64,000 bases of DNA from a virus: IMG/VR virus record IMGVR_UViG_3300025276_000022. One strand, written 5' to 3'. Each line of letters begins with the position of its first letter. Position 1 is the stretch's first letter. A program made the position numbers and the translations under genes. Under the pieces are notes generated by a model. It saw nothing but the letters and a program-made list of their open reading frames with translations. It did no database searches and had not been told where the DNA came from. Shown here in pieces: positions 1 to 64,000 of the stretch.

Positions 1-365
1 CTGGACAACTTGACTTCCAAGTTGGCGCTGGTCTCTCTATCGATGACACTGGTAACACTTTTGCTGGTACTCTAAATGGTAAGATGAAAGTTTATATCGA
101 TCCATACGCGACTACTGACTATGTTACAGTTGGTTATAAAGGCACTAACGCTTATGACGCAGGTGTTTTCTACTGCCCATACGTGCCATTACAAATGGTT
201 AAAGCAGTTGGCGAGAATGATTTCCAACCACGTATCGGGTTCAAAACTCGTTACGGAATGGCTTCTAACCCATTCGTATCTCCAGCTGGCGAGCAGAACA
301 TTGCCGCTACTGCCGGAATCAACACGTACTACCGTATCTTCCGCGTCGACAACATCATGGCGTAA
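1..365 (+). CDS. gp23: Major capsid protein, C-terminal part (5' truncated by window)
   Basis: Frame open from base 3 (GQLDFQ...DDTGNTFAGTLNGKMKVYIDPY...DAGVFYCPYVPLQM...FQPRIGFKTRYG), typical T4 gp23 C-terminus. Confidence 0.97.
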   Translation, partial: GQLDFQVGAGLSIDDTGNTFAGTLNGKMKVYIDPYATTDYVTVGYKGTNAYDAGVFYCPYVPLQMVKAVGENDFQPRIGFKTRYGMASNPFVSPAGEQNIAATAGINTYYRIFRVDNIMA

Positions 366-414
366 GCGAAAGATTACAAAGGATAACAATAAGAAACTTT
401 GTTTTAATCTTTAT

Positions 415-441
415 AGGGGACTCTTCGGAGTCCCTTTTTTT
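415..441 (+). terminator. Rho-independent terminator after gp23
   Basis: GGGACTC-TTCG-GAGTCCC stem with C(UUCG)G tetraloop followed by T-run. Confidence 0.93.
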
Positions 442-517
442 ATGTGTTAAATAATGCATATATATGAGGGTATCAAATAATAAGGAAAGTAATTGCCAAG
501 GATGGCGCTTATTATTA

Positions 518-525
518 TATAAATA
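518..525 (+). promoter_or_regulatory. T4-type late promoter
   Basis: TATAAATA 24 nt upstream of gp3 start. Confidence 0.85.
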
Positions 526-548
526 TATGGTATACTAGAGGGTATCTC

Positions 549-1016
549 ATGGCATTAACAGATAATAAAAATTTATTGCAACCCACAGGATTCCGTGTTA
601 TAGTGGAAAGAGAAAACTATGGCAACCTAGAATTCTTTGCGCAAGCAGTATCGCATCCAGGCGCGACTGTCGCCGCGGTAGAGATCCCCGTACCCAGAAT
701 TCAAGGATTGCCTATGCCAGGCGATACTATAAGTTATGGTGAGCTCTCGTTAAATTTAATATTAGATGAAGAACTCTCTGCATATAAAGAAGTTCAGAAG
801 TGGTTGGAAGATTCTGTATACGGTAACCGAGAGGTTATACACCACGATATCTCTGTGCTAATTCTAAGTAGTCACAATAACTCTTGTGCAAAAATAAATT
901 ATAAAAACTGTATACCTACTCAGTTAGGTGCTATAGAATTTAGTTCTACAGCTGGTGATGTGACGTACGTAAACTTTGATGCAACCTTTAGATTTACAGA
1001 ATTTGTTTTGTTATGA
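549..1016 (+). CDS. gp3: Tail completion / sheath stabilizer protein
   Basis: NLLQPTGF...FFAQAVSHPG...PGDTISYGEL motifs, position after gp23. Confidence 0.85.
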   Translation: MALTDNKNLLQPTGFRVIVERENYGNLEFFAQAVSHPGATVAAVEIPVPRIQGLPMPGDTISYGELSLNLILDEELSAYKEVQKWLEDSVYGNREVIHHDISVLILSSHNNSCAKINYKNCIPTQLGAIEFSSTAGDVTYVNFDATFRFTEFVLL

Positions 1017-1657
1017 GCCTGACCAAGTTTCCGATTAAGAATGCAGCAGTTCTGAGCATTCTTGAAGATTTCAGATATACTTATCGTGAGTTATATCAAC
1101 CTGAAAATACTAACACCTGTTTGTTCCCCGAAATGAAAGGTATGGCGGATCACTACACTGGTGAAGATGAAATGTGGCGTATCATTGACATGGGAGAGGA
1201 GCATGACGGTTCTGCATCTACCTCTGTATGTTATGCAATTAAACCAGATCACTATAACGGTACCCACCCAGAAGAGTACTCGAAGACGTGGATTAACCTC
1301 AACACCAGCCTGACCGAAGAGTTAGGTGTCCAACACAGTGCTCTCTCTACTCTATATCCACCCCAAGGGTTTATTGGTTGGCATAATAATGCAAATGCAT
1401 CTGCGTATAATATAATATTCACTTGGTCAGAACATGGTGAAGGATGGTTCAAGTATGTTGACCCCAAGACTCAAGAGGTCATAACAATCCAAGATGAGAA
1501 GGGTTGGAACTTGAAGGCAGGACACTTCGGTATATATGGGTCTGGTGATGTAGTTTACCATTCTGCAAAGACAGATTGCTATAGGATGACTTTAAGTTAC
1601 ACGCTAGGCCATGATGAATATTATTGGAAAGATTGTATTGACTTTATAACCAGTTAG
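1013..1657 (+). CDS. 2OG-Fe(II) oxygenase-like (DSBH) protein
   Basis: YPPQGFIGWHNN...YHSAKTDCYRMTL: H-x-N...H...R pattern; paralog at 27946. Confidence 0.6.
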   Translation: MSLTKFPIKNAAVLSILEDFRYTYRELYQPENTNTCLFPEMKGMADHYTGEDEMWRIIDMGEEHDGSASTSVCYAIKPDHYNGTHPEEYSKTWINLNTSLTEELGVQHSALSTLYPPQGFIGWHNNANASAYNIIFTWSEHGEGWFKYVDPKTQEVITIQDEKGWNLKAGHFGIYGSGDVVYHSAKTDCYRMTLSYTLGHDEYYWKDCIDFITS

Positions 1658-1666
1658 TGTTATACT
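1638..1666 (+). promoter_or_regulatory. sigma70-type promoter for uvsY
   Basis: TTGACT-N17-TATACT with TG extension. Confidence 0.7.
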
Positions 1667-1694
1667 AAATAACATTACATGAAAAGGTCTATAT

Positions 1695-2141
1695 ATGATT
1701 GATTTAGAATCCATTCTTATCGAATGGCAGAAAGACTGTGAGATATCACAACACCAACTGGACGAAGTCTCCCGACAGACTCCATCACTACATGCAAAAT
1801 ATTTGCAGTATCTGGCGTTCGCCAAACTACAACTCAAACGTTCTGAAAATAAACAGAAGACGTTGCTCAAACAAAAGTTCTTATACTATAACGGAAAGAT
1901 GTCTGAAGAAGAGGTCTTGGCGACTGGGTGGGATTTAGATCCATTCAATGGTCTGCGAATGTTAAAAGGTGAGATGGAGTACTACTACGACGCTGACTCT
2001 GAGATTCAGAAGTCAGAAGAGAAGCTCATATACTACAAAACTCTTATCGATACTCTGAAAGATATTGTTGATACTTTGAAGTGGAGACACCAAACTGTCA
2101 AAAATATGATTCAATGGCGTATGTTCGAAGCAGGCGGTTAA
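1695..2141 (+). CDS. uvsY: Recombination mediator UvsY
   Basis: LHAKYL...YYNGK...YYDAD...WRHQTVKNMIQWRMFEAGG; precedes uvsW. Confidence 0.9.
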   Translation: MIDLESILIEWQKDCEISQHQLDEVSRQTPSLHAKYLQYLAFAKLQLKRSENKQKTLLKQKFLYYNGKMSEEEVLATGWDLDPFNGLRMLKGEMEYYYDADSEIQKSEEKLIYYKTLIDTLKDIVDTLKWRHQTVKNMIQWRMFEAGG

Positions 2142-2186
2142 GTAACATATAAGTATACTCACGAAGTATGAAAGGATATTATTGAG

Positions 2187-13009: not shown

Positions 13010-13027
13010 ATGTCCCAAGGAAAGTTA

Positions 13028-13735
13028 ATGAATTACGACATTAATAAATTTGAAGAGTTCGGTTATGTTATAGTAACTGACTTTTTGTCGACTGTCGAAC
13101 ACCAACGTCTGAACGAAGAATGTGACACATATCGTAAGTACGCTGTTAGACTTTTTGATAATAGAAACGGTTGGATTATAAACTCTCCGAAAAATCCTTG
13201 TAAGTTGGACGGTGCGATGCAAAGAAGCTTGGTCTTCAGAGACTTGGGTTCTAATGATACGCTCAAGGAAGTTGCACGACAACTGCTAGATCAGAACGAC
13301 ATAGATACCTACATCTCTAAGTTTTTCCCTATGGTACCACTCGAAGGGTTTTCGGTGGGGTGGCACCAAGACAATCATTATATCAAGGCCGACCCTAGTC
13401 GTCTGATCAGTTGTGATGTATTTGTTAATGGTGCGGATAAGGAGAATGGTTGCCTACGTATTATACCTAACTCCCATACCGAAGAGTTTGACCATAACCA
13501 GAGATCACACCGTGTGTTTGACTGGATAGATATAGACGAAGAGTGTTCGACTATAGTAGACATAGAGTGTGACACTACATTCGCAGTTTTCTTTCACCCA
13601 AACCTAGTACATGGATGTTATAGAAATAGAAGTGATAGATATCGTTATAGTATTGCTTGGGAATATATTCATGAAGGATATGTTCCGAAAACACATAATG
13701 GCCATAATTCTCAGGATAGGTTACCCGTGATATGA
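13028..13735 (+). CDS. PhyH-family 2OG-Fe(II) dioxygenase
   Basis: FEEFGYVIV, WHQD, ENGCLRIIPNSH, LVHG...NRSDRYR. Confidence 0.9.
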   Translation: MNYDINKFEEFGYVIVTDFLSTVEHQRLNEECDTYRKYAVRLFDNRNGWIINSPKNPCKLDGAMQRSLVFRDLGSNDTLKEVARQLLDQNDIDTYISKFFPMVPLEGFSVGWHQDNHYIKADPSRLISCDVFVNGADKENGCLRIIPNSHTEEFDHNQRSHRVFDWIDIDEECSTIVDIECDTTFAVFFHPNLVHGCYRNRSDRYRYSIAWEYIHEGYVPKTHNGHNSQDRLPVI

Positions 13736-14532
13736 AAGCAATACAGATTGTAATAAAAGGTGACGAACGATCAGAAGAATATGCACATCTTTCTAGACGT
13801 TCTTTCCAACGTGCCATCGACGATGGTTACATCGACTCCATCGAAACCTTCGATGCGATCACCCCCCAATCAGAAGACTTCCAAGAACATGTAGATAAGT
13901 ACACGTGGGATAAGAGTCTGATGACTCTAGATACACTTTCCGGAAAGGGTAAGGATGATCATTCCCCTACAGAGAAAGCTGGGATGTGTTCTCACTGGGA
14001 ACTTATGCGTCAACAAGGAGAGTCAGACGAGAAGTTCTGGATCATGGAACACGACACTTGGTTGATAGAAGAACGTTATGAAGCGTTTAAACTTCTCTCG
14101 GAGTACTCTGAAAACACCCTCTATGCGAACATTGGACTATTCATGGGCATGTACTGCATGGACAAAGGGTTTGCTCACTGGAGTCAACACATGTTGACCA
14201 ACAACGATTTTCCTATAAACTGCGGCCCATACTGCGTTTTACAACGTCTTTTCAGAACATACACAACTGACTACCTTACTCGCCCAGAAATAAATTATTA
14301 CGGAATTCGCAATACCGCCTTGCATCCTTGGTCTGGATGTGATACAATAGGCGTAGGTCGTGACATTGGAGTTTACTTTAATTTATTTGACGAACATAAT
14401 ACTGGTATCCCAACACCAACAACTCAGTTGATTTCAAAACGTCTGAGTGTGACTCAAGACCACCATGGCTATAAAGATACGCATATACAAGAACCTTGGA
14501 CTAGACACAAATTCTTTAAGGTAATTGATTGA
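13732..14532 (+). CDS. GT25-like glycosyltransferase
   Basis: FDAITP, EKAGMCSHWELM...IMEHD resembles GT25 GC.LSH...LEDD. Confidence 0.65.
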   Translation: MKAIQIVIKGDERSEEYAHLSRRSFQRAIDDGYIDSIETFDAITPQSEDFQEHVDKYTWDKSLMTLDTLSGKGKDDHSPTEKAGMCSHWELMRQQGESDEKFWIMEHDTWLIEERYEAFKLLSEYSENTLYANIGLFMGMYCMDKGFAHWSQHMLTNNDFPINCGPYCVLQRLFRTYTTDYLTRPEINYYGIRNTALHPWSGCDTIGVGRDIGVYFNLFDEHNTGIPTPTTQLISKRLSVTQDHHGYKDTHIQEPWTRHKFFKVID

Positions 14533-14595: not shown

Positions 14596-15744
14596 ATGAA
14601 TTATCAACCATACAATCTCCAAGATGTCTATGACGCGGCATCTCAGAAAAAATTTAAAGTAGTGTCTACGTTCGCTGGCGGTGGTGGTTCATCCACTGGA
14701 TACCGACTGGCAGGTGCTGACATTCTCGCAGTTAACGAGTTCGTCGAAGAAGCACGGGTCACCTATAAAGAGAACTATCCGGACACTCCAATTCTTCCCG
14801 ACGATATCAAACAACTATCTGGTAAAGATTTCCTAGAGCTCACTGGTCTCAAGAAAGGTGAACTGGATATTCTTGACGGATCTCCTCCTTGCTCTGCATT
14901 TTCTGTTGCAGGCAAACTCTCTCATTCATCTGATGGTAAACACTCTGATGGTTGGGGACAGACCAAGTCCTATAGTGACGGTAAGATTGTCGAGAACATC
15001 GAAGACTTGTTCTTTGAGTTCTTACGTGTAGCTAAAGAAATCTCCCCCAAGGTAATCATCGCAGAGAATGTTAAAGGTCTGACCATTGGTGAGGCAAAAG
15101 AATACTACAACCGCATCCTTAATGAATTCGAGAATATTGGATATGAGGTTGTCTCTGAGGTTATGGATTCTCGTTACTACGGTGTCTCTCAGACTCGTAC
15201 TCGTGTAATCTTCATTGCCGTAAGACAAGATGTTGCCGACGAGGTTGGGTTAAACTTCCTAACTATGAATCACTTGTTCCCTGCACCAAGCCGCACAGCG
15301 ATCCCTCTCAAGGATGTTCTGGTTGGTCTGGAGTATGATAACGAAGAAGTCGAGTACCTAACAGAGAAGTTCGAAAGAACTGCGTACTGGAAAGATACTG
15401 GATCTCTGATGCCAACCTTTCCTGATAAAGTTTTGACTGGGGGTGACTATCATCCGAAAGGTCACCACTTCAATCTCAAGAGAGTATCGCTCGAAGTCCC
15501 TGCCCCTACTCTTACTGCGATGGGTAGCGGAGATACTACTGCTGGTGCATTTCATTGGAGTGATCCAAGAAAGTTGACACTAGGTGAATTAAAGCGTATA
15601 ATGTCACTACCCGATGACTTTAAACTAACGGGCAAGTGGAACCAGAAGGCAGAACGTATTGGTCGTATGGTACCACCATTAATGATGAAACAGATTGCTG
15701 AGTCAGTCTATGATAACGTATTGAAGGTATATAATGAAAGATAG
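14596..15744 (+). CDS. C5-cytosine DNA methyltransferase homolog, predicted carboxymethyltransferase
   Basis: Motifs I FAGGGG, IV GSPPC, VI ENVKG, VIII QTRTR; motif X GRMVPP instead of GN(A/S)VPP. Confidence 0.92.
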   Translation: MNYQPYNLQDVYDAASQKKFKVVSTFAGGGGSSTGYRLAGADILAVNEFVEEARVTYKENYPDTPILPDDIKQLSGKDFLELTGLKKGELDILDGSPPCSAFSVAGKLSHSSDGKHSDGWGQTKSYSDGKIVENIEDLFFEFLRVAKEISPKVIIAENVKGLTIGEAKEYYNRILNEFENIGYEVVSEVMDSRYYGVSQTRTRVIFIAVRQDVADEVGLNFLTMNHLFPAPSRTAIPLKDVLVGLEYDNEEVEYLTEKFERTAYWKDTGSLMPTFPDKVLTGGDYHPKGHHFNLKRVSLEVPAPTLTAMGSGDTTAGAFHWSDPRKLTLGELKRIMSLPDDFKLTGKWNQKAERIGRMVPPLMMKQIAESVYDNVLKVYNER

Positions 15745-16453
15745 AGAAAGCACAACCCATAGAGATTTTACATTCGGTCACCGCGAAGAAGGTTTCGATA
15801 ATCATATCGATGCTTCGATTCGCCACTACTCCTCACTACACGATGACGTAGTAAACTTATCTCGTTACTTTGTAGAGAACGATACTAAGGTTGTAGACAT
15901 TGGATGTAGTACAGGTAAGACCATCGAAGCCATGGTCAAACAGAATCATGAAACTGCGCCCAATGCACATTACTGTGGTGTTGAGTATGCCGAAGTGTTT
16001 CAAGCAGAGATGACTGATCGAGAAAAGAGACTTAATGGTGAAGGTCATCATATCTGTTTTCAAAACAAGAACATCATCCACCACAACTTTTCAAACTGTT
16101 CTCTTGTAACTTCTATCTTCACGTTGCAGTTCATGCAACCGCTATGGAGAAAGAAGGTAATGCAAAACATCTATGATGGTCTTAACGAAGGCGGTGCGTT
16201 CATCTTTGCCGAGAAGACTTATTCAGAGAACTCACGTATCCAAGATATGATAACCTCTACGTTCTATGAGTACAAAGCAGAGCACTTCACCTATGAAGAT
16301 ATTATGGAGAAAGAGAAGACTCTCCGAACTATGTTGAAACCAATGACTTGGAACGAGCTTGTCGCTCTACTAACCTCAGTTGGTTTTGATTCGACAAAGA
16401 TTCAACCGTTCTGGATGAATCATTTGTTCGTCGGTGCTATTGCAATAAAGTAA
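15734..16453 (+). CDS. cmoA: CmoA-like carboxy-S-adenosylmethionine synthase
   Basis: Collinear with CmoA: FTF, DIGCSTG, FTLQF, IYDGLNEGGAFIFAEK, K...L, GF...F...A.K. Confidence 0.8.
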   Translation: MKDRESTTHRDFTFGHREEGFDNHIDASIRHYSSLHDDVVNLSRYFVENDTKVVDIGCSTGKTIEAMVKQNHETAPNAHYCGVEYAEVFQAEMTDREKRLNGEGHHICFQNKNIIHHNFSNCSLVTSIFTLQFMQPLWRKKVMQNIYDGLNEGGAFIFAEKTYSENSRIQDMITSTFYEYKAEHFTYEDIMEKEKTLRTMLKPMTWNELVALLTSVGFDSTKIQPFWMNHLFVGAIAIK

Positions 16454-16539: not shown

Positions 16540-18027
16540 ATGATTGCGACGAACTCTACCCACATACATAAAATTGTTTGCGAAGAACTTGTGTCTAAAT
16601 CTCATGAGGCGTACACCTACAAGTGGACTATCAAAGACCCTGATAGCAATAAAACCTATTTTTATGGTGGTCGCAGACATAACGAGTATCAGCCTAATGC
16701 GTATATGCATTCAAGTAAGAATGCTAAATTTCTTGACATTCTTAGTAAGAGTAAGGATGTAACATATGAGGTCACTTCTGTAGGTACTCATGAAGAGGCA
16801 GCGCTCGAAGAGGCTCGAATGTTAACAGACTCTAAAGCTAAGAGTTCAGAATATTGGTTTAACTCTACCAATGGTTTAGGTGGTAAAGGTGGTAAAGGTG
16901 TTGGTAAAACATTATTTTTAGACACTCTCACTAGTGAGATGAAACGTCTTATGAACGGTGAAGAAAACCTTAAACCAGACCAAGTCGGGCCTATGGGTAT
17001 CACCAAGGGCAACTACTCAAAAGCAGATTTAAGAGATATTGTTGTTATCCGACAACAATTCGTACAAACGCGTTCATACCAATTTAATTCCTCTCACGTA
17101 TCTACTTTGGCGGAAGGGTTTGATAAGAAATCTGACCCAAATGAATGGGAACCTATTGTCGTTCTTCTGGATGCTAAGGTAATAGATAACAAAGTAGTAT
17201 ATTGTGACAAAGGTGGCGTAGTTGTTATTTCAGGTAATCACCGTTCGCGTGGTTTAGTACGTTCTACTAATGGAGTATCTTTGAATGCCTATAACATTCC
17301 CCATAAGTCTTGGGAAAAATTAGACGACATAGACATGAGAACGTTATCTAATAGATTTAACCCAAACCCTGAAAAACCTGTACTCAAGCAAGACCCTGAA
17401 GCGGCCGCAGCATGGGTCTTGGGTTGGTGTGAAAATAGAGGTCTAACAAAGATTGCTGATGATGGAGTTACAAAGATACCTGATATTAAACACTCCCTCG
17501 TTAAAAAGGAACTTATCGAAGTTAATAACTACACTCAGGGCGATTTCAATAGTGTTATAAAAGAGTGCCAGAAAAAAATCGAGAAACAATTTATAGCTGA
17601 TGGAGATAATATGCTAGATTGGGCAGACGCGGCTATGTCTCTAGACCCTGTCTTAGCTGGTACCCTTGACCATTATAAAACGAGGTTAATAGACGAAGGG
17701 CAACATACCGATGTTTATAAGATTTCAGGTAAGGTTCTTAACTGGGGTAAACTCTCAGATAGGATTTATGATAAAAAACAATGCGAGATTAAGACCCATC
17801 ATAACTTATTGGTATTAGTGTACCATGCGACTAAGGAAGATATGAAGGAGTGTAAAAAGGGTCTATATAAAAAATGTAAAGTATTCTCAGATGATTTTAT
17901 TGCGGGTAAACCAGACCGTAAAATTGAGTATATGCATCTGCCTATCACCAAGTCATACCTTCAATATAAAAGCCCGTTGAAGCTTGACTATGATATTGTT
18001 TGCGATAAACTAGTAGAAGGTTTGTAA
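16540..18027 (+). CDS. GIY-YIG(Seg)-like N-terminus plus ParB/Srx-like domain protein
   Basis: AYTYKW...FYGG..H...YMHSS...E...FN; EPIVVL...VISGNHR. Confidence 0.55.
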   Translation: MIATNSTHIHKIVCEELVSKSHEAYTYKWTIKDPDSNKTYFYGGRRHNEYQPNAYMHSSKNAKFLDILSKSKDVTYEVTSVGTHEEAALEEARMLTDSKAKSSEYWFNSTNGLGGKGGKGVGKTLFLDTLTSEMKRLMNGEENLKPDQVGPMGITKGNYSKADLRDIVVIRQQFVQTRSYQFNSSHVSTLAEGFDKKSDPNEWEPIVVLLDAKVIDNKVVYCDKGGVVVISGNHRSRGLVRSTNGVSLNAYNIPHKSWEKLDDIDMRTLSNRFNPNPEKPVLKQDPEAAAAWVLGWCENRGLTKIADDGVTKIPDIKHSLVKKELIEVNNYTQGDFNSVIKECQKKIEKQFIADGDNMLDWADAAMSLDPVLAGTLDHYKTRLIDEGQHTDVYKISGKVLNWGKLSDRIYDKKQCEIKTHHNLLVLVYHATKEDMKECKKGLYKKCKVFSDDFIAGKPDRKIEYMHLPITKSYLQYKSPLKLDYDIVCDKLVEGL

Positions 18028-18894
18028 TTGATACGAGACTTACTTATCGACCACATAACAGGAAAGGTGCCGCACGATAAGGTTGCGGTACTTCTTTCTG
18101 GTGGTGTTGACAGTATCAGTGTGGCAATCGCTGCACAGGATGCTGGGAAGACTGTACACGCGTATAGTTTCCATCTCGAAGGACAACCATCTTATGACCA
18201 TGCGAAGGCAAAAGAAGTCGCAGAAATCATGGGGTGGGAGTTCACCACTATTATCGTCCCTACTGATAACCTAGTTGAAGACTGGCACCGACTAGTCAAA
18301 CATGGTTGTCGCAAGAAATCCCACTACGAAGCCGCAGTGTTTCCCTTCCTCTATTGTTATGAAAACATGTTAGAAGAATACTGTATTACTGGATGGGGTG
18401 CAGACGCCTACTTCGGTTGCAGTAAGAAAGCAATGATACGATACTCTTCTTTTAAAAAGAAGCGCAACTACGTCAAGTACTGTAAAGAGAACAACCAGAC
18501 GAGAGTTAACTGGAATGAGTTCCGTAATGCCTATCTAGACGGAGACTGTGCAGGACTACAGCAACACACCAATCTTGCAGAGAAGCATGGTAAGGTGCAT
18601 GTCACTCCATATCTAGACCCACGCGTACGCGAGTACTTTATGAAGTTTTCGTGGGAAGAACTCAACAAACCAAAACAAAAGAATATAATCCGTGAAGAAT
18701 TTAATATTGAAGATCTGTTTGGGAAAGTCAAGCCCCATATCAATCTTCAGTTGGGTAGTGGTATTGATACACTGTTCGAGACTCTTCTGGATAATCCGGA
18801 GGTAAACTATAAAAGAAGACAGCGAGTGATGGACATGTGCCGCGACTGGTACACCGATCATACTACTTCTAATCTTTCTGATTTCATGTCTTGA
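18028..18894 (+). CDS. Asparagine-synthetase-like ATP-dependent amide ligase lacking glutaminase domain
   Basis: LLSGGVDS PP-loop, TGWGADAYFG, PYLD, K.IIRE. Confidence 0.85.
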   Translation: MIRDLLIDHITGKVPHDKVAVLLSGGVDSISVAIAAQDAGKTVHAYSFHLEGQPSYDHAKAKEVAEIMGWEFTTIIVPTDNLVEDWHRLVKHGCRKKSHYEAAVFPFLYCYENMLEEYCITGWGADAYFGCSKKAMIRYSSFKKKRNYVKYCKENNQTRVNWNEFRNAYLDGDCAGLQQHTNLAEKHGKVHVTPYLDPRVREYFMKFSWEELNKPKQKNIIREEFNIEDLFGKVKPHINLQLGSGIDTLFETLLDNPEVNYKRRQRVMDMCRDWYTDHTTSNLSDFMS

Positions 18895-18925: not shown

Positions 18926-21403
18926 ATGACAAAATTTTACTCTTCTGCTATCCGTATGGGTAAGCACATTCTATATCGCGGTTACGAGAACGGCCTACAG
19001 GTCAAGAAACGTATTCCATTCCAACCTAAACTATATGTCACCAGTCAGAACGAATCTGATTGGAAGACTCTGGACGGTCTCCCCGTTGCCGAGTGCGTCT
19101 TGGACTCTATGTCTGATGCGACTGACTTCCTCAAGAAGTATGCTGATGTGCATAACTTCAAGGTATATGGTAACAACAATTACGTTGCCCAGTATATCGG
19201 TGAACAATTTCCCAATAAGATAAACTTCGACCGCGATCTAATCCGGACTGCCAATATCGATATCGAGGTTTATAGTAAGGAAGGTTTCCCTGAGCCAGGC
19301 AAGGCTGCATATCCAGTGACCTCTATTACAATGCGCAAGAATGATGGCACCTACTGGGTGTGGGCATGTGGAGACTATGTCACTACTCGTGAAGAAGTCC
19401 TCTATATCAAATGCGACAACGAGATGGATCTTCTCCGCAAGTTTATTGAGCACTGGTCTCACTACGCTCCTGACATTCTGACAGGTTGGAACAGTCGGTT
19501 CTTCGATATCCCATACATCGTTAACCGTTGCGTTAACCTGTTCGGTGATGACACGTTATTGAAACGACTATCTCCTTGGGGTGCGGTACGTGAACGTAAT
19601 GTAACTATTCAAGGTCGCGCCAATCAGGAATACGTGATTGAAGGTGTCGAGCACCTAGATTACATTGAAATCTTTAAGAAGTTCACACTCAACACTCTGG
19701 GTCAACAAGAATCCTATCGTCTAGACCATATCGCCCACGTTGTCTTGGGTGAACGCAAGTTGTCCTATGAGGAGCACGGAAACCTCCACGCTCTTTATGA
19801 AAACGACTTCCAAAAGTTTATTGACTATAACATCAAAGACGTGGAGTTGGTTCACAAGATCGATGAGAAACTCGACTTGATTACTCTGGTACTCACCATG
19901 GCATATCGTGGTGGTGTTAACTATGGTGACACACTTGGTACTACTAACATCTGGGACAGCATCATCTACCGTATGCTGAACAAGATGAAGGTCGTAGTTC
20001 CTTCCAAATCTGAGAAGCCTAAGACTTCATATCCGGGCGGTTATGTTAAAGAACCTCAAGTTGGGTCACACGACTGGGTTACCTCTTTTGATTTGGCGTC
20101 TCTATATCCCAACATCATTGTTCAATATAACATGTCACCTGAGACTGTGATGGACGGTTTCCATAATGGTGTAAGCGTCGATAAGTTTCTTGATGGATCA
20201 TACAAGGTATCTGAGTCTAACGTCTCTATTGCGCCAACTGGAGTCGCTTTCTCACATGATAGAGAGGGGGTCATTCCTACGGTGATTAAACAATACTACA
20301 CGGAACGTAGTCTTATCAAGAAGGAGATGTTGAAACTCCAGCAGGAATACCAGAAGAATCCGACTAATGCTTTGGCCTATAGGATATCGTCACTGGACAA
20401 CCAACAGATGGCTATCAAGATTCTTATGAACTCCCTCTATGGTGCGCTCGGTAATCGATACTTCCGTTACTTTGATCAACGTGTTGCAGAGTCAATTACT
20501 CTTGCAGGGCAACTTGCAATCAAATGGGCAGAGAGAGCAGCCAATAATGAGATGCAGAAACTTCTTAAAACAGATGAAGATTATGTTGTAGCAATTGACA
20601 CGGATTCTCTATACATTCGTATGTCTGCCCTTGTGGATAAGTTTTCTCCTAAAGACCCTGTAAAGTTTCTTGACAAGATATGTTCCGAGCACTTCGAGAA
20701 AGTTCTGGAAAATTCTTATAATGAGATGGCAGAAGTTACTGGTGCGTACGAGAATCGTATGGTGATGGAACGTGAGGTAATCGCAGACCGTGGTATCTGG
20801 ATGGCGAAGAAACGATATATCCTTAATGTGCATAACTCTGAGGGTGTGCAGTACGCAGAACCTAAACTCAAGATGATGGGTATCGAGGCAATCAAGTCAT
20901 CGACTCCTTCGGTTGTCCGTGACAAGATGAAAGAAATCTTCCGCGTCATTGTAGAAGGTACCGAGGAAACCACCCAGAGATTTATCCGTGAGTTCAAGAC
21001 TCTGTTTAATACATTACCACCCGAAGATGTTTCGTGGCCCCGTGGTATCTCTAATCTCGATAAGTGGAAAGACCGAGAGACTATTTTCAAGAAGGGTACT
21101 CCCATACATGTTCGCGGTGCGTTATGTTATAACAATCTAATCAAGGAGAATAATCTTGGTAATAGATATGAACTGGTCAAGCCAGGCGAGAAGGTAAAGT
21201 TCGTCTATCTAAAAGTACCGAATCGTCTGGGTGAAAACGTTGTGGCATATCCTCAACATCTCCCCGAAGAACTGGGACTGGGTAAGTATATCGATTACGA
21301 CTTAATGTTCAGTAAGACTTTCATTGCCCCTCTCGAACCAATTCTTGATGCAGTCGGTTGGGCTTCTGAACCTCGTGCCACATTGGAGGACTTCTTCGGA
21401 TGA
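18926..21403 (+). CDS. gp43: Family B DNA polymerase
   Basis: DIEV exo [44 protein letters not shown]. Confidence 0.98.
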
Positions 21404-21816
21404 TCACAGACTTTTGCGTTATATGCGGAACGAAAGAAAATCTTCATAACCATCATATTGTTTGTAAGAAGAGTAAACTGAAACCAATATCTGGCGACAT
21501 TGATCATTATACAAACCTCATAACTCTCTGTGGAGAACATCATGGGTGGATTCATGGTATGAAACCTAATAGATTCAATGACAATAACCGTTTAAGAACG
21601 GCTGGAATAAAGAAAGCACAGAAAGAAGGAAAGTATCTTGGACGTGTTCCAACTGCGCAAAGAAAGTCTAAAGAGATTCAGAGATTGCATTCAGAAGGAA
21701 TGAAACCGGCATTAATTGCAAAGGAACTCAACATAGGAGTCGCGAGTGTCTACCGATATAGAGAAAAAGAAAAAAAACAAAAGCAAATGACAGATCAAGC
21801 GCAATTCTTCGGTTGA
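21400..21816 (+). mobile_element. Free-standing HNH endonuclease with resolvase-type HTH
   Basis: CVICG...HHI...NLITLCGEHHGWIH; AGIKKAQKEGKYLGR...IAKELNIGVASVYRY; flanked by TTCTTCGG(A/T)TGA repeats. Confidence 0.75.
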
Positions 21817-27945: not shown

Positions 27946-28623
27946 ATGAGTGAAGTTGTAATTCGTAATAAAGAAATGTTGGATGTCCTGAATGGATTCT
28001 CTGATGAGTTGTTGTCTAAACCATCTTATAACGATGAGAAATACTGGACGTATCATGAGCGCAGTGATATCACTAAAGGCGACTACTACACTTCTCGTTT
28101 ATACTTAGACGATTGTCTCTCTAGATATCCTGAACTAGTAGGGCCGCCTGACAGATACTTTGCACAACCTATATCTAAAATGGTTCGTGCGGATAAGGAA
28201 ATGTGGGGTGCGTTTATGCAGAAGGTCAAATACGACTTCGCTGCAGAAATTGGTGCACATACATCCGCATTACTTTCATACTATCCGCCAGGCGGTTTTG
28301 TTGGTTGGCATAACAATTATGATGCGAGTGCGTATCAAGTATTGTTTACGTGGTCAGAAACCGGAGAAGGGTATTTCGAATACTATGATAAGAAGACTGA
28401 TCAAATTACTCGTATCCACGATGTGCCTGGCTGGCAATGCAGACACTATTACTTTGGTTCGAGAGAAGAAGAAGATTTACATTTTTGGCATGCTGCTTAT
28501 GCAGGGTGTCAGAGAATCACACTAGCCTACAAGTTTGTTAATGGTGGCAATGTGAACAACCCCGAAGATGCGCAAGCGAGAGCAATGCGTGATATGTTAA
28601 TTGATGATATAGAGAGTGAATAA
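27946..28623 (+). CDS. 2OG-Fe(II) oxygenase-like protein, paralog of 1013-1657
   Basis: YYPPGGFVGWHNN...FWHAAYAGCQRITL. Confidence 0.6.
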   Translation: MSEVVIRNKEMLDVLNGFSDELLSKPSYNDEKYWTYHERSDITKGDYYTSRLYLDDCLSRYPELVGPPDRYFAQPISKMVRADKEMWGAFMQKVKYDFAAEIGAHTSALLSYYPPGGFVGWHNNYDASAYQVLFTWSETGEGYFEYYDKKTDQITRIHDVPGWQCRHYYFGSREEEDLHFWHAAYAGCQRITLAYKFVNGGNVNNPEDAQARAMRDMLIDDIESE

Positions 28624-29975: not shown

Positions 29976-30293
29976 ATGAGCGATAATGTAATTTTAGTAG
30001 GTATCATTTTAGTCATAGTAGGATTTATTGTTATGAGTAAAAAATCTAGCACTGGGTCAACTGGTAAAGGTACTACCCCAGTAAAGCCATCAACGCCTGT
30101 GGTAGATCGCCATGCTGAAAGCATTGCTGTACAAAGAGACATGTTTTCTAAAATGACTGTTACTCAATTAAAAGTATATGTTAAAGAAAACAAATCTAAA
30201 TTGGGAGAATCGACGGGTCGTATGCCAACTAAGAAGGCCGAACTCATTGAAGCTGCTATGCAAATATTCCAATCTTGGACTGAAGAAAAATGA
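29976..30293 (+). CDS. Membrane-anchored protein with Rho-N/SAP-like C-terminus
   Basis: N-terminal TM; SKMTVTQLK...TKKAELI. Confidence 0.6.
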   Translation: MSDNVILVGIILVIVGFIVMSKKSSTGSTGKGTTPVKPSTPVVDRHAESIAVQRDMFSKMTVTQLKVYVKENKSKLGESTGRMPTKKAELIEAAMQIFQSWTEEK

Positions 30294-34551: not shown

Positions 34552-35967
34552 ATGAAGTATAAAGTACTACTATTATCATCATCTATTTTCCTAGCATCGT
34601 GTGGTGGAGGATCTACTAGTTCCCCTGAACCGATTGCTGTTATTCCCCCAGCACCTACTCCTCTTGAGATATCTATTGGTGAGTTAAGGGATATAATGAA
34701 CGTGACCTCTCCTACAGGTTCGTACGAAGGATACATTCTCCCAGAAAGTGATGACTTCTTCAACATCCCCCAAGATCCTAGCAACCCTGTTACTTCTGAG
34801 AAAGTAGAGTTAGGTAAGTTGCTTTATCATGAAACTGGTATGACCTCGTCTGAGACTAGCAAGACCGATATGGTCGACACGTGGTCTTGTGCATCATGTC
34901 ACAATGGCCAGAACGGATTCAAGTCTGGTATTCGCCAAGGTATTGGTGAAGGTGGTGTCGGTTTTGATCACCGTACTTTCGCAGAAGGTATGGAAGAACT
35001 TGCAGACATACAACCACTAACATCTCCTACTGTATTGAATAGTGCATATCAAGAAGTGATGTTATGGAACGGTCAGTTCGGTAATGTGATGGGCGGTATA
35101 GTGAATGTGGGTATTGACCCTGAACGTCACTTCACCGAAGGTACCCCGAAGGAAGCAAACCTACGACAGTTGTCTGGTCTTGAAACACAAGCAGTTGCCG
35201 GTCTAGGTGTTCACCGAATGGATGTTACTAGTGATGAATCCATCCTTAGTAACAACGAAACCTATCAGATGATGTTTGAGGCTGCATACGGAACTTCACG
35301 ACCGACCGATATGTTAGAGGCAGCATCCTTTGCGATTGCCGCATACGAAAGAACTATCCTTGCAAACCGTGCACCATTCCAAACGTTCCTACGTGGAGAT
35401 GAGACTGCACTGTCTATAGAGGAAGTAGAAGGTGCAAAAGTATTCTTCGGTAAAGGTAACTGTGCTGGTTGCCACAACGGCCCTGCACTATCATCACCTG
35501 TAGGATCTATGGCGCAAGAAGTGTTTATGACTCTTGGTTTCCATGACTTGGATATGTGGGAAGATACTGTCGGTGAAGTTGGCCAAGCGGTAAAAGAAGG
35601 TCGTGCTGGATTTACTGGTGACAGTATGGAAAAGTTCGCGTTCAAAGTACCGCCACTTTACAATCTTATAGATACTACTGTATTCGGTCATGGTGGTTCA
35701 TTCACCAGTGTTGAAGATGTGGTAAGATATAAAGTTGCCGCAGTTCCACAACATCCACAAGTTGAAACGACTGATGTGGACTACCGTTTTGTTCCATTAG
35801 ATTTGAGTGAAGAAGATATCTCAAACTTGATTGCATTCTTAGAGCAGAGTTTGTATGATCCAGATTTGATGAGATATGTACCAGACACATTGCCTAGTGG
35901 TAACTGTGTAACCAACAATGACCAGCAGTCACAAGACGACTTAGGATGTACTGACAATGGATTATAA
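34552..35967 (+). CDS. Di-heme cytochrome c peroxidase/MauG-family lipoprotein
   Basis: Lipobox LASC; NPVTSEKVELGKLL; CASCH and CAGCH; SPTVLN; FKVPPLYNL; HGG. Confidence 0.92.
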   Translation: MKYKVLLLSSSIFLASCGGGSTSSPEPIAVIPPAPTPLEISIGELRDIMNVTSPTGSYEGYILPESDDFFNIPQDPSNPVTSEKVELGKLLYHETGMTSSETSKTDMVDTWSCASCHNGQNGFKSGIRQGIGEGGVGFDHRTFAEGMEELADIQPLTSPTVLNSAYQEVMLWNGQFGNVMGGIVNVGIDPERHFTEGTPKEANLRQLSGLETQAVAGLGVHRMDVTSDESILSNNETYQMMFEAAYGTSRPTDMLEAASFAIAAYERTILANRAPFQTFLRGDETALSIEEVEGAKVFFGKGNCAGCHNGPALSSPVGSMAQEVFMTLGFHDLDMWEDTVGEVGQAVKEGRAGFTGDSMEKFAFKVPPLYNLIDTTVFGHGGSFTSVEDVVRYKVAAVPQHPQVETTDVDYRFVPLDLSEEDISNLIAFLEQSLYDPDLMRYVPDTLPSGNCVTNNDQQSQDDLGCTDNGL

Positions 35968-46865: not shown

Positions 46866-48926
46866 GTGAAGAAATTTAGTGAGATAAGAACTCATACTCA
46901 AGAGGCAAAAGAACATACGTACACTGTGGTTCATGCTAAGAAAGGTAAAGTAGTAGTTACTGCACCCACTTCATATGATGCGGCAAAGAAAGCGGCAAAG
47001 CAATGGAAACTAAAGTCTACTGGCGGTGTTGATGCTCACATTATGGAAGCAAAACAAGCTATAGTGTGGAAAGTTAAACCACCAAAGGGTCAGAAGAATA
47101 TTCATCCTGATTCCAAATGGCCAGGAATAAAGCCAGGCGATATCCAAAAGATGAATGAGTCTGTCGAACTTGACGAACTTTGCGAAGCGCAAGGCAAGTT
47201 AAATGCCAAAGGCGAGATCGAGATGACTGCGAAGAACTACGCCAAGATTCACAAGGACTTTAAGACCAAGATCAAAGGAACACCTTTTGCTATGCAGATA
47301 CATCCTAAGACTGGCGGTTCTGCACTGTTCCCTGTTACGTTCATCAAAGAGTCTACCGACCTCACGGAAGGTAAGAACCTCATTCCTCAGTTCCAAGATA
47401 TCGTCAAGAACAAACAAGCGAAAAAGATCGGTGGTACTATGATAGATATGTACACCGCAAGCACCATTACCCATGTATATGATAAAGTATCTGATGCCAA
47501 TAAGAAGAAGATGGAAACATCAAACATTAATGTGCTTATCGGACTTTCACGTAAAATCATGGGTGCTGGCCAAAAGGAATCAGTAGAGGTTGTAGAGGGA
47601 GACGAATATAAGAATATCTCCAAGACAATAACCCAAACTCCTAAGCATAAACGAGACAAGAAAGCAACCGCTGCAAAACCTGCCAAGACTAATGCTAGAG
47701 AAGTTGCTCGTCGTAAAGCGATTGAGAAACATCAAGCAAAGAACGCTGCTAAGAAAGAAAAAGGATACTGGGACGAGAGTGCCAAAGGTATGGTAGGCGG
47801 TTTCTCAGTAGAGATACCAAAACAAACTATCTCTGGTAAGACTATCGGTGGTGGTAAGAACGGAATCTTTGTTAAAGCTAAGACTGCTCGTCAAGCAATC
47901 AGCATGGCAGCAAAACGTCTGGGTGTTGATTTCAAGATGCTTAAAGTCGGTAAGGTATTGAAAGAAGGTGTTGAATCAATAAATGAAGCAAAAGTAGAAA
48001 CAGAAAGACACTTTGGTAAAAAAGGTATTATCATTATGATTCGTGATGGAAACAAAATGATATCTGCAATATTCAAAGATAAAAAGAACGCTGATGAATT
48101 TAATAGAAACAAACCAGCTGATGTTAAAAAACTTATACAACTTGCTAAGGAAACAAAATATCCAAAAGCAATTGATGAATCGGTAAACCTTGAAGAAGGA
48201 AAAATGAAAGAGTTTCATGACTATATTGATCAAGGTAAATCTGCACAGTGGATTGCTAAGAAGATGGGTCTGGACATGAAGACTGTAAAAGAATTGATGG
48301 CAGACATGAAAGAGTCTGTCGAAGAAGGTAAGACTGGTGCAGCACGATTGACCAACCGACTAAAGAAGTCCGGTGTTGATCTTGACAAACGTGCCAAGGA
48401 TCGTGCCGCAAGTCATGCAGAACTAAAGAAGAAGTATGCTACTGAGTCTGTCGAACTGGACGAAGCATATCAGCAGTTCTTGGATAAGACTCCTAACTGG
48501 GGTGAAGACAAGGCAATCTCTTATGGACGCAAGAAGGGTTACAAAGAGATCGGTGTATGTGGTCACGGTAAGATAGATGGTATTGTATTGTTCGGTATGG
48601 ATGCTGGCGACAAAGCATATGTCGGTAAGGAAGCAAAGATTAAGACTGGTCAAACAGTATTCCGTTATGCTACTAGCCGCACTGTCGCAGGCGATATCTT
48701 TCCTTTAGTTAAGATTGATGTTAAGAAAGGTCTTCTATATAACCTATCTCAGAAGTCTAGTGAAGGTGAGATCGAACACGCAGAGTTTGAAACTAAGAGT
48801 TCTAAGCTAAGATATCTTCGTCTTCTATCTACTGCGAACCTCCGTGATATTGTTGGATTCGATGCAGAGGTTAAAGAATCTACTGCACCTAAAACTCTTA
48901 GCGATATTAGAGCGAAAAGATTTTAA
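46866..48926 (+). CDS. Putative internal-head polyprotein
   Basis: MKKFSEIR; about ten Lys-rich modules separated by acidic ES(V/T)x(L/V)xE linkers. Confidence 0.7.
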   Translation: MKKFSEIRTHTQEAKEHTYTVVHAKKGKVVVTAPTSYDAAKKAAKQWKLKSTGGVDAHIMEAKQAIVWKVKPPKGQKNIHPDSKWPGIKPGDIQKMNESVELDELCEAQGKLNAKGEIEMTAKNYAKIHKDFKTKIKGTPFAMQIHPKTGGSALFPVTFIKESTDLTEGKNLIPQFQDIVKNKQAKKIGGTMIDMYTASTITHVYDKVSDANKKKMETSNINVLIGLSRKIMGAGQKESVEVVEGDEYKNISKTITQTPKHKRDKKATAAKPAKTNAREVARRKAIEKHQAKNAAKKEKGYWDESAKGMVGGFSVEIPKQTISGKTIGGGKNGIFVKAKTARQAISMAAKRLGVDFKMLKVGKVLKEGVESINEAKVETERHFGKKGIIIMIRDGNKMISAIFKDKKNADEFNRNKPADVKKLIQLAKETKYPKAIDESVNLEEGKMKEFHDYIDQGKSAQWIAKKMGLDMKTVKELMADMKESVEEGKTGAARLTNRLKKSGVDLDKRAKDRAASHAELKKKYATESVELDEAYQQFLDKTPNWGEDKAISYGRKKGYKEIGVCGHGKIDGIVLFGMDAGDKAYVGKEAKIKTGQTVFRYATSRTVAGDIFPLVKIDVKKGLLYNLSQKSSEGEIEHAEFETKSSKLRYLRLLSTANLRDIVGFDAEVKESTAPKTLSDIRAKRF

Positions 48927-61434: not shown

Positions 61435-61463
61435 TTGACACGTAATGAAAATAAGTGTATAAT
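61435..61463 (+). promoter_or_regulatory. Early promoter
   Basis: TTGACA-N17-TATAATAGCT. Confidence 0.85.
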
Positions 61464-61497
61464 AGCTGTATAAATTAATGAAAAGAGAAACTATATT

Positions 61498-62454: not shown

Positions 62455-62723
62455 TGTATACTAGTAATCGAGAATACAAAAATAGGTATGGGGACAAATA
62501 TGAGTTCGTTGGAACGGACTCTCCATCTAGATTCATTCTGGAGGGTAATCTTAAATACTGTAGGATGGGTGGTAAGGAAGGCGTGGAGAGAATCGACCAA
62601 TTAGATTTGGGTATGATAGATCCTAGTGGTGGCCCTTACATAGATCTAGGTACCTTGATAGACAATAAAAAAATAACTAAAATTTCTGTATACTCAGAAG
62701 TAATCATGTTGGAGACAGAATAG
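62454..62723 (+). CDS. Hypothetical protein
   Basis: NRYGD.Y.F...IDPSGGPYI. Confidence 0.8.
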   Translation: MYTSNREYKNRYGDKYEFVGTDSPSRFILEGNLKYCRMGGKEGVERIDQLDLGMIDPSGGPYIDLGTLIDNKKITKISVYSEVIMLETE

Positions 62724-62938
62724 TGGAGATTGAAATAACAGATGAATCGCTTGAACGTATTATGGTAACCCAACTCACTCAGAGTCTGGAGTGGGCTCGT
62801 AAAGACTTGTCTACGTATGATGTTGGTTTAAATGCAAACGCAAACGTGGTAGGTGTCCCCGAAGCAGACAAAGAAGAACTGCGCAAGGACATTGAAGCTT
62901 ACGAAAGAATTCTCAATTATTGGACGGTACAATTATAA
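62723..62938 (+). CDS. Hypothetical protein
   Basis: Coupled ORF, GGAG RBS. Confidence 0.65.
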   Translation: MEIEITDESLERIMVTQLTQSLEWARKDLSTYDVGLNANANVVGVPEADKEELRKDIEAYERILNYWTVQL

Positions 62939-63357
62939 TGAAAAATCGATTCGACCTAGAACAAGAAATCATGGACTGTTGGAAAGTTACCGATGAGATC
63001 AATATGGTGACTAAACACTTCATCGATAGTCCACAATGGGAAGGTATGAGTGCTGAACTGGCCGATGCCTTGATGAACAAATACTTTGCGATTGCGGAAC
63101 TTTATGAACTCAAGTTTACAAATCTATTCGAGACCTTTGTCGATTGTATACCTGACTTGAAAGATTCTATCGAAAATAATTTAGGAGAGTATGTTTTTTC
63201 TGAAGCAGAACGACGTTTCATCACTGACGATACCGTTGATTTTTCCTCGCCTTGGGATGTAGAAGCTCCCAGTCCTCAAATGGATTTACGTCTAAATGAT
63301 GTCACGCCCGAAGGTTGGGACAACCCTAGGGCGTGGGATAAAACTACTAGAGGTTAA
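62938..63357 (+). CDS. Hypothetical protein
   Basis: RFDLEQEIMDCW.V.D...LY.LKF..LF. Confidence 0.75.
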   Translation: MKNRFDLEQEIMDCWKVTDEINMVTKHFIDSPQWEGMSAELADALMNKYFAIAELYELKFTNLFETFVDCIPDLKDSIENNLGEYVFSEAERRFITDDTVDFSSPWDVEAPSPQMDLRLNDVTPEGWDNPRAWDKTTRG

Positions 63358-63369
63358 ATATCTCTCTCG

Positions 63370-63417
63370 TTAGACCCCTTTGTTCTATAAATAGAAATAG
63401 ACAAGGGGAGCGTCTAA
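63370..63417 (+). promoter_or_regulatory. Late promoter embedded in RBS-sequestering hairpin
   Basis: TATAAATA 63386-63393 between TTAGACCCCTTTGT and ACAAGGGGAGCGTCTAA arms. Confidence 0.75.
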
Positions 63418-63686
63418 TGAAAACTTTTCATATAGCAGTACGAACTGCATTGCTGTGTTCTTTACTTTGGATTGGTGGTACAGCACTTTTAATTAATGAA
63501 TATATAAAGGTAGTGCAAACAAAAGATTTTCAGATTATGATGTTGAAGTCTGACGTTAGCAAGAATAAACAATTAACTACAGTATATGATACAACATTAA
63601 AAGATTTTCTTTGGAGAATTCAAAACCGCGAAGAGATTCGTCTTGCCAAGAAAACCTTTATGTGTTACAAAATTGATAAGGTATAA
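63417..63686 (+). CDS. Late membrane-anchored protein
   Basis: N-terminal TM then helical region. Confidence 0.7.
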   Translation: MKTFHIAVRTALLCSLLWIGGTALLINEYIKVVQTKDFQIMMLKSDVSKNKQLTTVYDTTLKDFLWRIQNREEIRLAKKTFMCYKIDKV

Positions 63687-63688
63687 TA

Positions 63689-64000
63689 ATGATTAAGTTT
63701 AATAAAGAAGTCTTTGAAGTTTTCGAGGAATATAAGAAAGCAGATTCCAGAGAATCCCGATTAGATGTATTGAAAAAATATGAAGACAACTGGGCGTTCA
63801 AAGATATTCTTCGTGGATCCTTCGACGAGTCTTTGGAATTTCTACTTCCTTCTGGACGCCCACCATTCACTCCCAATAAAGCGGAGTCGGTTCCCTCTAC
63901 CCTACTGAAGCAGCACAAGCAATTTGGTAACTTTATTAAGGGTGGTACCGGAGAGCAAACCCCAGCGTTTAAACGCGAGAATCAATTCGTCCAGCTTCTA
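63689..64000 (+). CDS. Conserved T4-like hypothetical protein (3' truncated)
   Basis: E.F......K...L....FD....F.LP.G.PPF..N...KRE..F.QLL; open to window end. Confidence 0.8.
   Translation, partial: MIKFNKEVFEVFEEYKKADSRESRLDVLKKYEDNWAFKDILRGSFDESLEFLLPSGRPPFTPNKAESVPSTLLKQHKQFGNFIKGGTGEQTPAFKRENQFVQLL

Follow-up and report, generated by a model that had tools for sequence, protein, structure and literature searches.

Avoidance of restriction-site palindromes in phage genomes has been described since the 1980s, and among viral DNA methyltransferases M.CviPI of a chlorovirus is a GpC cytosine-5 enzyme that takes S-adenosylmethionine (SAM) as donor and makes 5-methylcytosine (5mC). A different chemistry was established for Synechococcus phage S-B43, whose SpCmoX (PDB 8YF3) is a DNA cytosine C5-carboxymethyltransferase that uses carboxy-SAM (Cx-SAM) supplied by a phage-encoded CmoA, with GC as its target according to nanopore sequencing and oligonucleotide assays (PMC12783734). 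The resulting 5-carboxymethylcytosine (5cxmC) is ligated to glycine by CmoY to give 5-glycyl-cxmC; in S-B43 virion DNA ~75% of GC is modified and HhaI is blocked (PMC12783734). R350 of SpCmoX binds the carboxymethyl group of Cx-SAM, the wild-type enzyme takes only Cx-SAM, and the R350N mutant takes neither cofactor; site avoidance is not mentioned in that paper (PMC12783734). Here we analyze a 64-kb stretch of viral DNA, IMG/VR virus record IMGVR_UViG_3300025276_000022 (referred to over its full length as the window), which carries an orthologous CmoX cassette together with an avoidance of restriction-type palindromes that depends on the base flanking the site.

The window has a GC content of 40.8%, carries its genes essentially all on the plus strand, and covers the part of a T4-like marine myovirus genome devoted to replication and morphogenesis. 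The DNA polymerase encoded there shares 73% identity with its counterpart in Phage C48C1 and ~45% with the enzymes of cyanomyoviruses (about 44% for S-B43). Since psbA is absent from the clade of the window, the host is probably not a cyanobacterium. The gene at 14596–15744 (+) encodes the CmoX ortholog, a predicted DNA cytosine C5-carboxymethyltransferase with matches to PF00145 (E 1.8e-52) and PDB 8yf3_A (E 4e-154), which is 64% identical to SpCmoX of S-B43 and 62% identical to CmoX of phage S-CRM01. It has the C5-methyltransferase (C5-MTase) fold and keeps the SPPC motif (‘ildgSPPCsafs’ in the alignment with SpCmoX), and its ERIGRMVPP segment aligns with ERVGRMVPP of 8yf3_A, placing an arginine at the motif X position that corresponds to R350. 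The end of cmoX is overlapped by the gene for a CmoA-like carboxy-SAM synthase at 15734–16453 (+; SAM-MTase fold, phrog_4752, E 1.9e-58), 50–53% identical to the CmoX-adjacent CmoA of S-B43 (50%) and S-CRM01. A CmoY-like ATP-dependent amide ligase is encoded at 18028–18894 (+; PF00733, E 2.3e-16); the protein has the asparagine-synthase/PP-loop fold, lacks a glutaminase domain and shares 45% identity with SpCmoY of S-B43.

Judged by these orthologies, the cassette would produce 5cxmC in a Cx-SAM-dependent reaction followed by amide ligation, without methylation, and the enzyme encoded at 14596 presumably has the same target and product as SpCmoX. The GC/GCC target that a sequence-only reading of the window had predicted for this enzyme from site avoidance agrees with the published GC target of its ortholog. 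A plain GpC methyltransferase of the M.CviPI type (M.CviPI is named in PMC3017589) was considered and rejected, as such an enzyme requires the motif X asparagine (GN). Both proteins are virus-encoded, of C5-MTase fold, and act or are predicted to act on every GpC; M.CviPI, however, uses SAM, whereas in the window enzyme arginine replaces the asparagine and the ortholog accepts only Cx-SAM. In S-B43 as in the window, the three genes lie close together among the replication genes of a T4-like marine phage. The two phages differ in lineage, as seen from the polymerase and from the lack of psbA in the phage of the window, and in gene order, the window cassette being broken by an open reading frame of its own, ORF495. 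They also differ in the sites avoided, which are CCGG and CACGTG in S-B43 and CCNGG and GGWCC in the window.

The avoidance in the window is pronounced and conditional. GGACC and GGTCC are both absent, although GGAC followed by A, G or T occurs 68, 43 and 41 times and GGTC followed by A, G or T 70, 46 and 65 times; the 29 GGNCC sites are exclusively GGGCC or GGCCC. All 32 CCNGG sites have a 5′ G or a 3′ C, a state that we call flanked. By a maximal-order Markov model, GGWCC is the most under-represented 5-mer (0 observed vs 45 expected, z −6.7), followed by CCWGG (22 vs 56). We further performed 300 synonymous-codon shuffles, in which protein sequence and codon usage are kept, as a codon-aware null. 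The shuffled sequences contain 46.1 ± 5.5 GGWCC sites (minimum 33) and 50.4 ± 5.6 unflanked HCCNGGD sites (minimum 36), and the window contains none of either. CCNGGC exceeds expectation (27 vs 12.8, z +4.5), and doubly flanked GCCNGGC is enriched 6.6-fold (13 vs 2.0). Surviving CCAGG sites exemplify the three permitted contexts: 3′ C only at 657–661 (+; catCCAGGcgc), 5′ G only at 47121–47125 (+; tggCCAGGaat), and doubly flanked, the enriched class, at 28288–28292 (+; ccgCCAGGcgg). CCATGG obeys the same flank rule, with 6 flanked sites and 1 unflanked site vs 10 expected, and ACCGGT, CTTAAG, GACGTC, CTGCAG and GCATGC are purged as well. Over the whole window, both the GC dinucleotide (2123 observed vs 2303 in the shuffles, z −10.7) and GGC (390 vs 451) fall short of expectation, possibly because modification is costly or because nucleases that depend on modification select against such sites.

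The footprint extends into codon choice. Glycine is encoded by GGT in 57% and by GGC in 12% of cases overall, whereas of the 27 glycines that follow proline 23 have GGC (P 7e-18) and none has GGT (P 1e-10), and the remaining four Pro-Gly pairs are preceded by a codon ending in G. Gly-Pro is written with GGC or GGG in 20 of 20 cases, and the excess of GGSCC over the shuffles (29 vs 16.6) arises because codon choice is forced at Gly-Pro. Both dipeptides are themselves depleted relative to composition, Pro-Gly to 0.64× and Gly-Pro to 0.47×. A by-product of codon usage, codon-pair or mutation bias might be suspected from the fact that 27 of the 32 surviving CCNGG sites are in-frame Pro-Gly. It is refuted by the shuffles, whose minima of 33 and 36 sites lie far above the observed zeros. 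CCNGG is also nearly absent out of frame, the GGC chosen after proline runs against the genome’s codon preference, and sister phages of similar codon usage differ in the sites they lack, which makes this explanation scarcely credible. Because of the shuffles, the codon choice at Pro-Gly and Gly-Pro and the dipeptide depletion, the footprint is one of selection on DNA words, and codon, mutation and translation bias are excluded.

The descriptive claims of the sequence-only reading, made by manual scan, are thus reproduced by exact counts: the absence of GGACC and GGTCC with GGNCC confined to GGGCC and GGCCC, the G or C flank of every CCNGG, including the six positions that it had quoted, and the writing of Pro-Gly as CCN-GGC and of Gly-Pro as GGC/GGG-CCN. 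The depletion is also strong against both the Markov and the codon-aware null, the comparison that it had proposed as a check. Its Sau96I-like enzyme recognizing GGNCC, on the other hand, is not needed, as an AvaII-like GGWCC specificity explains the data equally well.

The best explanation, to which we assign a probability of about 75%, is that host restriction selects for the purging of sites, and that the GpC adduct made by CmoA, CmoX and CmoY shields the flanked copies. It builds on what is seen directly: sites are depleted, the surviving copies follow the flank rule, codon choice is forced, the cassette enzyme is orthologous to one whose GC target has been published, and S-B43 has the same footprint. 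Several type II restriction enzymes of the host population would select against the purged palindromes, which comprise GGWCC, CCNGG, ACCGGT, CTTAAG, GACGTC, CTGCAG, GCATGC, CTCGAG and CCATGG. After replication, the cassette would convert the cytosine of GpC into 5-carboxymethylcytosine and then amidate it. A site that starts with C and follows a G (or, for the other strand, precedes a C) would then bear a bulky adduct on its outer C and escape cleavage, and such shielded copies would be neutral and survive. At Pro-Gly (CCN-GGN), which offers no synonymous escape, selection would force GGC or a preceding codon ending in G and would thin out the dipeptide. GGWCC, whose cytosines cannot contain or overlap a GpC, would be eliminated completely because GC modification cannot reach it. 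In this scheme, we infer both that host restriction enzymes are the selective agents and that the adduct blocks them. As in classical restriction-site avoidance, short type II palindromes are depleted and the set varies with the host; here, however, depletion is conditional on a single flanking base, and copies overlapping the modification target are as frequent as expected or more so. The footprint would therefore read out the modification motif as well as the host enzymes.

The same rule is found in two other phages with CmoX. CCGG occurs 8 times in the 214 kb of S-B43 and is flanked in every case, with 0 unflanked sites vs 97 expected (P 1.6e-6), and CACGTG is present in 6 flanked and 0 unflanked copies (P 7e-4). 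S-CRM01 has 6 flanked and 0 unflanked CGATCG sites, a count to be read with the caveat of the HIP1 word GCGATCGC, and 7 flanked and 2 unflanked CACGTG sites. S-CRM01 (NC_015569.1, 115080–116917) carries CmoX and CmoA, with no CmoY homolog found by tblastn, and from its gene content the end product may be unamidated 5cxmC. The published GC target of S-B43 fits the flank that rescues sites in the window, and the core of the earlier shielding proposal, that sites are purged unless their outer C lies in a GpC modified by the phage's own enzyme, holds.

IMG/VR contains many relatives of the window with polymerase identities of 63–99%, and we performed the genome-scale tests on near-identical IMG/VR contigs; contigs that are only 11–26% complete are not usable to show absence of the cassette. 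In a contig of 145 kb with a polymerase 96% identical to that of the window (G006), in which the CmoX cassette adjoins the polymerase, GGWCC is observed 0 times vs 175 expected and unflanked CCNGG once vs 187. Two further CmoX-bearing genomes, in which the cassette does not lie beside the polymerase, likewise purge unflanked CCNGG (2 vs 162 in G003, 0 vs 104 in G002) yet keep GGWCC near expectation (166 vs 170 and 87 vs 112, respectively), while flanked CCNGG is at expectation in all three. GGWCC avoidance is therefore uncoupled from CmoX and would reflect only a host enzyme whose site cannot overlap GpC. The purged sets also differ otherwise among close relatives, ACCGGT being kept in the genome G004. 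The cassette itself is a mosaic: between the window and G003, where it lies at 119566–122343, ~85 kb away from the polymerase, CmoX is 93% identical, CmoA only 56% and CmoY 64%.

Doubly flanked GCCNGGC is enriched 2.3–6.6-fold in cassette-bearing genomes, significantly in 5 of 6. No such excess is seen in C48C1, S-B43 or S-CRM01, nor in general in the absence of selection on CCNGG. This enrichment fits an incomplete shield that acts on each strand separately and speaks against an intrinsic 7-bp specificity of the nucleases. Extended recognition by the nucleases themselves, for example of HCCNGGD and without any DNA modification, would reproduce the logic that one wrong flank saves a site, as expected of a 7-bp palindrome. 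It does not predict the doubly flanked enrichment, and it would have to hold alike for at least five unrelated sites in one genome (CCNGG, CCATGG, CTGCAG, CTCGAG and CTTAAG) and for CCGG, CACGTG and CGATCG in other phages. The CCGG rule is moreover absent from phages of the same host genus without the enzymes (see below), and we regard extended recognition as very improbable.

Several results weigh against assigning the footprint to the CmoX cassette. The contig IMGVR_UViG_3300025874_000006 (G001), whose last 1.65 kb match its first 1.7 kb at 88–96% identity, is effectively a closed genome of ~149 kb assembled across strain variants, since a 1.65-kb stretch is common to both ends; in IMG/VR it is described as ‘linear, 91% complete’. 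Scans of this closed genome revealed no CmoX, CmoA, CmoY, PF00145, PF01555, PF02086 or PF01702. Nevertheless, it has 0 GGWCC sites vs 192 expected, 0 unflanked CCNGG vs 199 and 77 flanked CCNGG vs 70, and follows the flank rule at CCATGG (flanked to unflanked 8:0), CTGCAG (6:0), CTCGAG (2:0) and CTTAAG (2:0). G001 and G004, both without CmoX, share the footprint down to the set of purged sites. GCATGC and unflanked CTGCAG, in which GC stands in GCA/TGC, are purged in CmoX genomes including S-B43; modification of GCA may be inefficient, in line with the 75% level, or else the enzymes cutting GCATGC and CTGCAG tolerate the adduct. In addition, the expected counts derive from Markov and codon-shuffle nulls, and the compared genomes are phylogenetically related. 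Since G001 shows the same footprint without CmoX, the footprint is not CmoX-specific and cannot on its own be assigned to the enzyme encoded at 14596. The sequence-only reading had named an identical bias in relatives lacking the cluster as an outcome that would refute it, and formally G001 is such a relative.

The locus that holds the cassette in the window suggests how G001 may be accommodated. The cassette occupies an insertion hotspot whose left border is orf266 (13732–14532, +), a gene conserved in the clade at 83–93% identity and without a Pfam, PADLOC or PHROG match, and whose right border is the gp43-type family B DNA polymerase (18926–21403, +). Across 80 loci, the interval between orf266 and the polymerase holds the CmoX cassette, a DruA-like cassette, or nothing but a gap of 35–67 bp. 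Where the window has CmoX, CmoA, ORF495 and CmoY, G001 has a gene for a 387-aa DruA-like protein and a variable second gene. Among clade contigs longer than 50 kb, 10 of 10 have either the CmoX or the DruA-like cassette, never both, and each follows the rule. C48C1, the only complete genome without either cassette, has no CCSGG in either context (0 vs 21 flanked, 0 vs 44 unflanked) and retains 19 unflanked CCWGG. There is no need to see in C48C1 a fading ‘ghost’ of past selection; what matters is that it tolerates no flanked CCSGG. Scans for PF01555 (N4/N6 MTase) and PF01702 (TGT/DpdA) were negative in G001, G003, G006, G004 and C48C1, and among these five the D12 MTase (PF02086) is present in C48C1 only.

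As separate observations on this locus, GGWCC is 0 in 23 of 23 loci with an occupied hotspot, whichever the cassette (loci L025–L104), and normal in lineages that carry the cassette elsewhere (G003, G002, L057/58, L089 and L092); GGWCC is likewise 0 in some outer lineages whose hotspot is empty, and in a quick polymerase tree the hotspot and GGWCC states are interleaved.

We surveyed 23 genomes, cultured phages among them, for the flank rule; three extra positives and three extra negatives were named before their sequences were obtained. The survey is correlative and its genomes are not phylogenetically independent. The rule is followed by 6 of 6 CmoX genomes, by 10 of 10 genomes with the DruA-like gene (weakly in S-SM2) and by 0 of 7 with neither gene. 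Expressed as observed/expected counts, S-CAM9 has 37/35 flanked and 0/105 unflanked CCGG (P 5e-23) and S-PRM1 32/34 and 0/97 (P 2e-19). In S-SSM7, CTGCAG stands at 27/16 flanked and 0/58 unflanked (P 8e-19) and CCATGG at 18/13 and 3/41 (P 6e-9), and in HTVC008M CTGCAG stands at 9/7 and 2/22 (P 7e-5). The three prenamed positives behave alike at CCGG, with 17/20 flanked and 0/59 unflanked sites in DSL-LC02, 8/20 and 0/87 in S-CREM1, and 11/43 and 2/110 in S-T4. In Syn9, Syn19, S-SSM4, S-CAM8, S-CAM22 and S-MbCM6, which have neither gene, flanked CCGG is purged like unflanked CCGG (0–1 observed of 21–36 expected). S-SSM7 purges CCGG whatever the flank.

Only in S-B43 and S-CRM01, which have CmoX, does a G flank rescue sites whose first letters are CA or CG; no such rescue is seen in the DruA-like phages, where flanked CAATTG is 0/35 (S-SSM7) and flanked CGCG 0/28 (HTVC008M). 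This difference suggests a context of GCN for CmoX and of GCY for the DruA-like enzyme. In the clade of the window, no site starting with CA or CG is strongly depleted, and the window's own CmoX is compatible with GCY as well as with GCN. The conflict posed by G001 is thus resolved by correlation only: the CmoX-less relatives carry, at the same hotspot, a DruA-like gene that tracks the same footprint in cultured phages.

Alternatively, the shield might come from another factor common to the clade, encoded by the phage or consisting of a host methylase that modifies phage DNA, in which case CmoX would be irrelevant to the footprint of the window. The footprint and purged sites of the closed genome G001, which lacks CmoX, CmoA, CmoY and the methylases searched for, speak for such a factor, as does the fact that CmoX-type and DruA-type genomes within the clade cannot be told apart by their footprints. 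Yet all ten clade contigs above 50 kb carry exactly one cassette, C48C1 with neither no longer tolerates flanked CCSGG, and among cultured phages the rule tracks the CmoX or DruA-like gene in 16 of 16 genomes and is absent from 7 of 7 with neither. Gene profiling for presence in G001, G006 and G003 and absence from C48C1 yielded only a Zeta-toxin-like P-loop kinase and small open reading frames (ORFs), and these were dropped as candidates. A clade-wide factor is therefore unlikely, although it retains more weight than the other alternatives. The Zeta-toxin/AAA_33-like kinase lies at 30290–30967 of the window; copies are present in G001, G003 and G006 (81–93% identical to the one in G001) and missing from C48C1.

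A further alternative leaves the shield in place and replaces the selective agents, which would be nucleases of the phage itself that degrade unmodified host DNA. T4-like phages do degrade host DNA, ORF495 and a small ORF that weakly matches HNH and HTH_7 could be nucleases, and hotspot occupancy correlates perfectly with GGWCC = 0. However, at least nine palindromes are purged and the set varies among close relatives, as is typical of diverse host restriction–modification systems, and ORF495 is unique to the window whereas the footprint is clade-wide. We consider phage nucleases improbable as the agents and retain host restriction combined with shielding by the CmoX adduct as the explanation for the window.

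The DruA-like protein of G001 matches Pfam DruA/DUF4338 (PF14236, E 1.2e-10, above the curated cut-off) and DruA in PADLOC. Marine metagenomes contain over 6,000 relatives of this protein, which is a member of phrog_19197. Genomes were screened by tblastn with the G001 protein. Homologs are present in the Pelagibacter phage HTVC008M and in the Synechococcus phages S-SSM7, S-CAM9, S-PRM1, S-T4, S-CREM1, DSL-LC02 and S-SCSM2R; the cultured-phage homologs are 44–56% identical, and these isolates carry no C5-MTase. In HTVC008M (NC_020484.1), the full gene directly follows the DNA polymerase (99529–100656), and another match, which is partial (104 aa at 38% identity), lies 13 kb upstream (86554–86853). 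The AlphaFold2 model (predicted local distance difference test, pLDDT, 72) has a GNAT fold, and the top matches of Foldseek and of an exhaustive structure search (VIA) are all GNATs. Foldseek against the PDB gave weak GNAT matches (E ~1e-2), whereas VIA placed Mom of phage Mu first (8bv8_B, Z 8.2, 172 of 202 residues), tied with generic GNATs at Z 7–7.9. The family profile searched against PDB sequences found neither Mom nor any other GNAT.

DUF4338 has been called a GNAT (PMC10853773), Mom is a GNAT-fold, Gly-tRNA-dependent DNA modifier that makes N6-carbamoylmethyl-adenine (PMC13219725), and the published assignment of ORF152 of S-SCSM2R, a member of the family, as Mom-like is a prediction with no experiments behind it (PMC12801897). 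The DruA-like protein resembles Mom in its GNAT fold, with Mom as best structural match, and in appearing to protect against many restriction enzymes. It differs in lacking sequence-level similarity, in a structural score shared with generic GNATs, in its DruA/DUF4338 Pfam assignment, and in its footprint, which has a G-C(Y) context while Mom acts at an adenine motif. With DruA of type I Druantia, the G001 protein and its homologs in HTVC008M, S-SSM7, S-CAM9 and others share the match to PF14236; the match covers ~115 residues of the GNAT core, and unlike DruA the phage protein stands alone by replication genes, without DruB–E. In type II Druantia, DruM is a cytosine methylase.

At slightly better than even odds, we propose that the DruA-like GNAT is a second DNA-modifying enzyme, interchangeable with CmoX, that would place its mark within GCY, on the cytosine or on the G paired with it, and thereby mask sites beginning with CC or CT. 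The same idea extended to type I Druantia would make DruA a DNA-marking enzyme too, in the position that DruM holds in type II, and the specificity of such enzymes would be readable from genome sequence alone through flank-conditional avoidance.

ORF495 (16540–18027, +), situated between cmoA and cmoY, has no Pfam, PADLOC or PHROG match, and tblastn found it in the window only and in no relative, including G006. It splits the cassette and could be mobile or encode a nuclease; G006 carries a different insert of ~1.1 kb at the same position. ParBc proteins are frequent near CmoX (PMC12783734). The PhyH-type 2-oxoglutarate (2OG)-Fe(II) dioxygenase encoded at 13010–13735 (+) is not part of the cassette, since it lies beside orf266 also in relatives with an empty hotspot (G003, L056 and L059–61). 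The small ORF with the HNH and HTH_7 matches follows the polymerase at 21400–21816; C48C1 and its relatives have a D12-class N6-adenine methyltransferase at this position, which marks a second variable slot. At 34552–35967, the window further encodes a di-haem cytochrome c peroxidase (CCP_MauG, E 3e-23), an unusual auxiliary gene for a phage.

Taken together, the shielding interpretation drawn from the sequence was essentially right for the window, with three corrections: (i) the enzyme is of a known type, CmoX, (ii) GGWCC represents a class of sites that cannot be masked, and (iii) the footprint is not unique to CmoX. New are the flank-conditional avoidance footprint and the proposal of a widespread alternative to CmoX from the GNAT/DruA family with a GCY-type target.

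The footprint indicates that the composition of a phage genome can report the target of its modification enzyme, which here agrees with the experimentally determined GC target of CmoX, and this offers a cheap computational screen for thousands of uncharacterized phage modification genes. It splits maskable from unmaskable sites, so that modification and avoidance share the task of restriction evasion. In abundant marine phages, among them cultured cyanophages and a pelagiphage, the DruA-like gene would take the place of CmoX, the two being mutually exclusive, with a predicted GCY context; if this is true, it suggests a function for DruA in Druantia.

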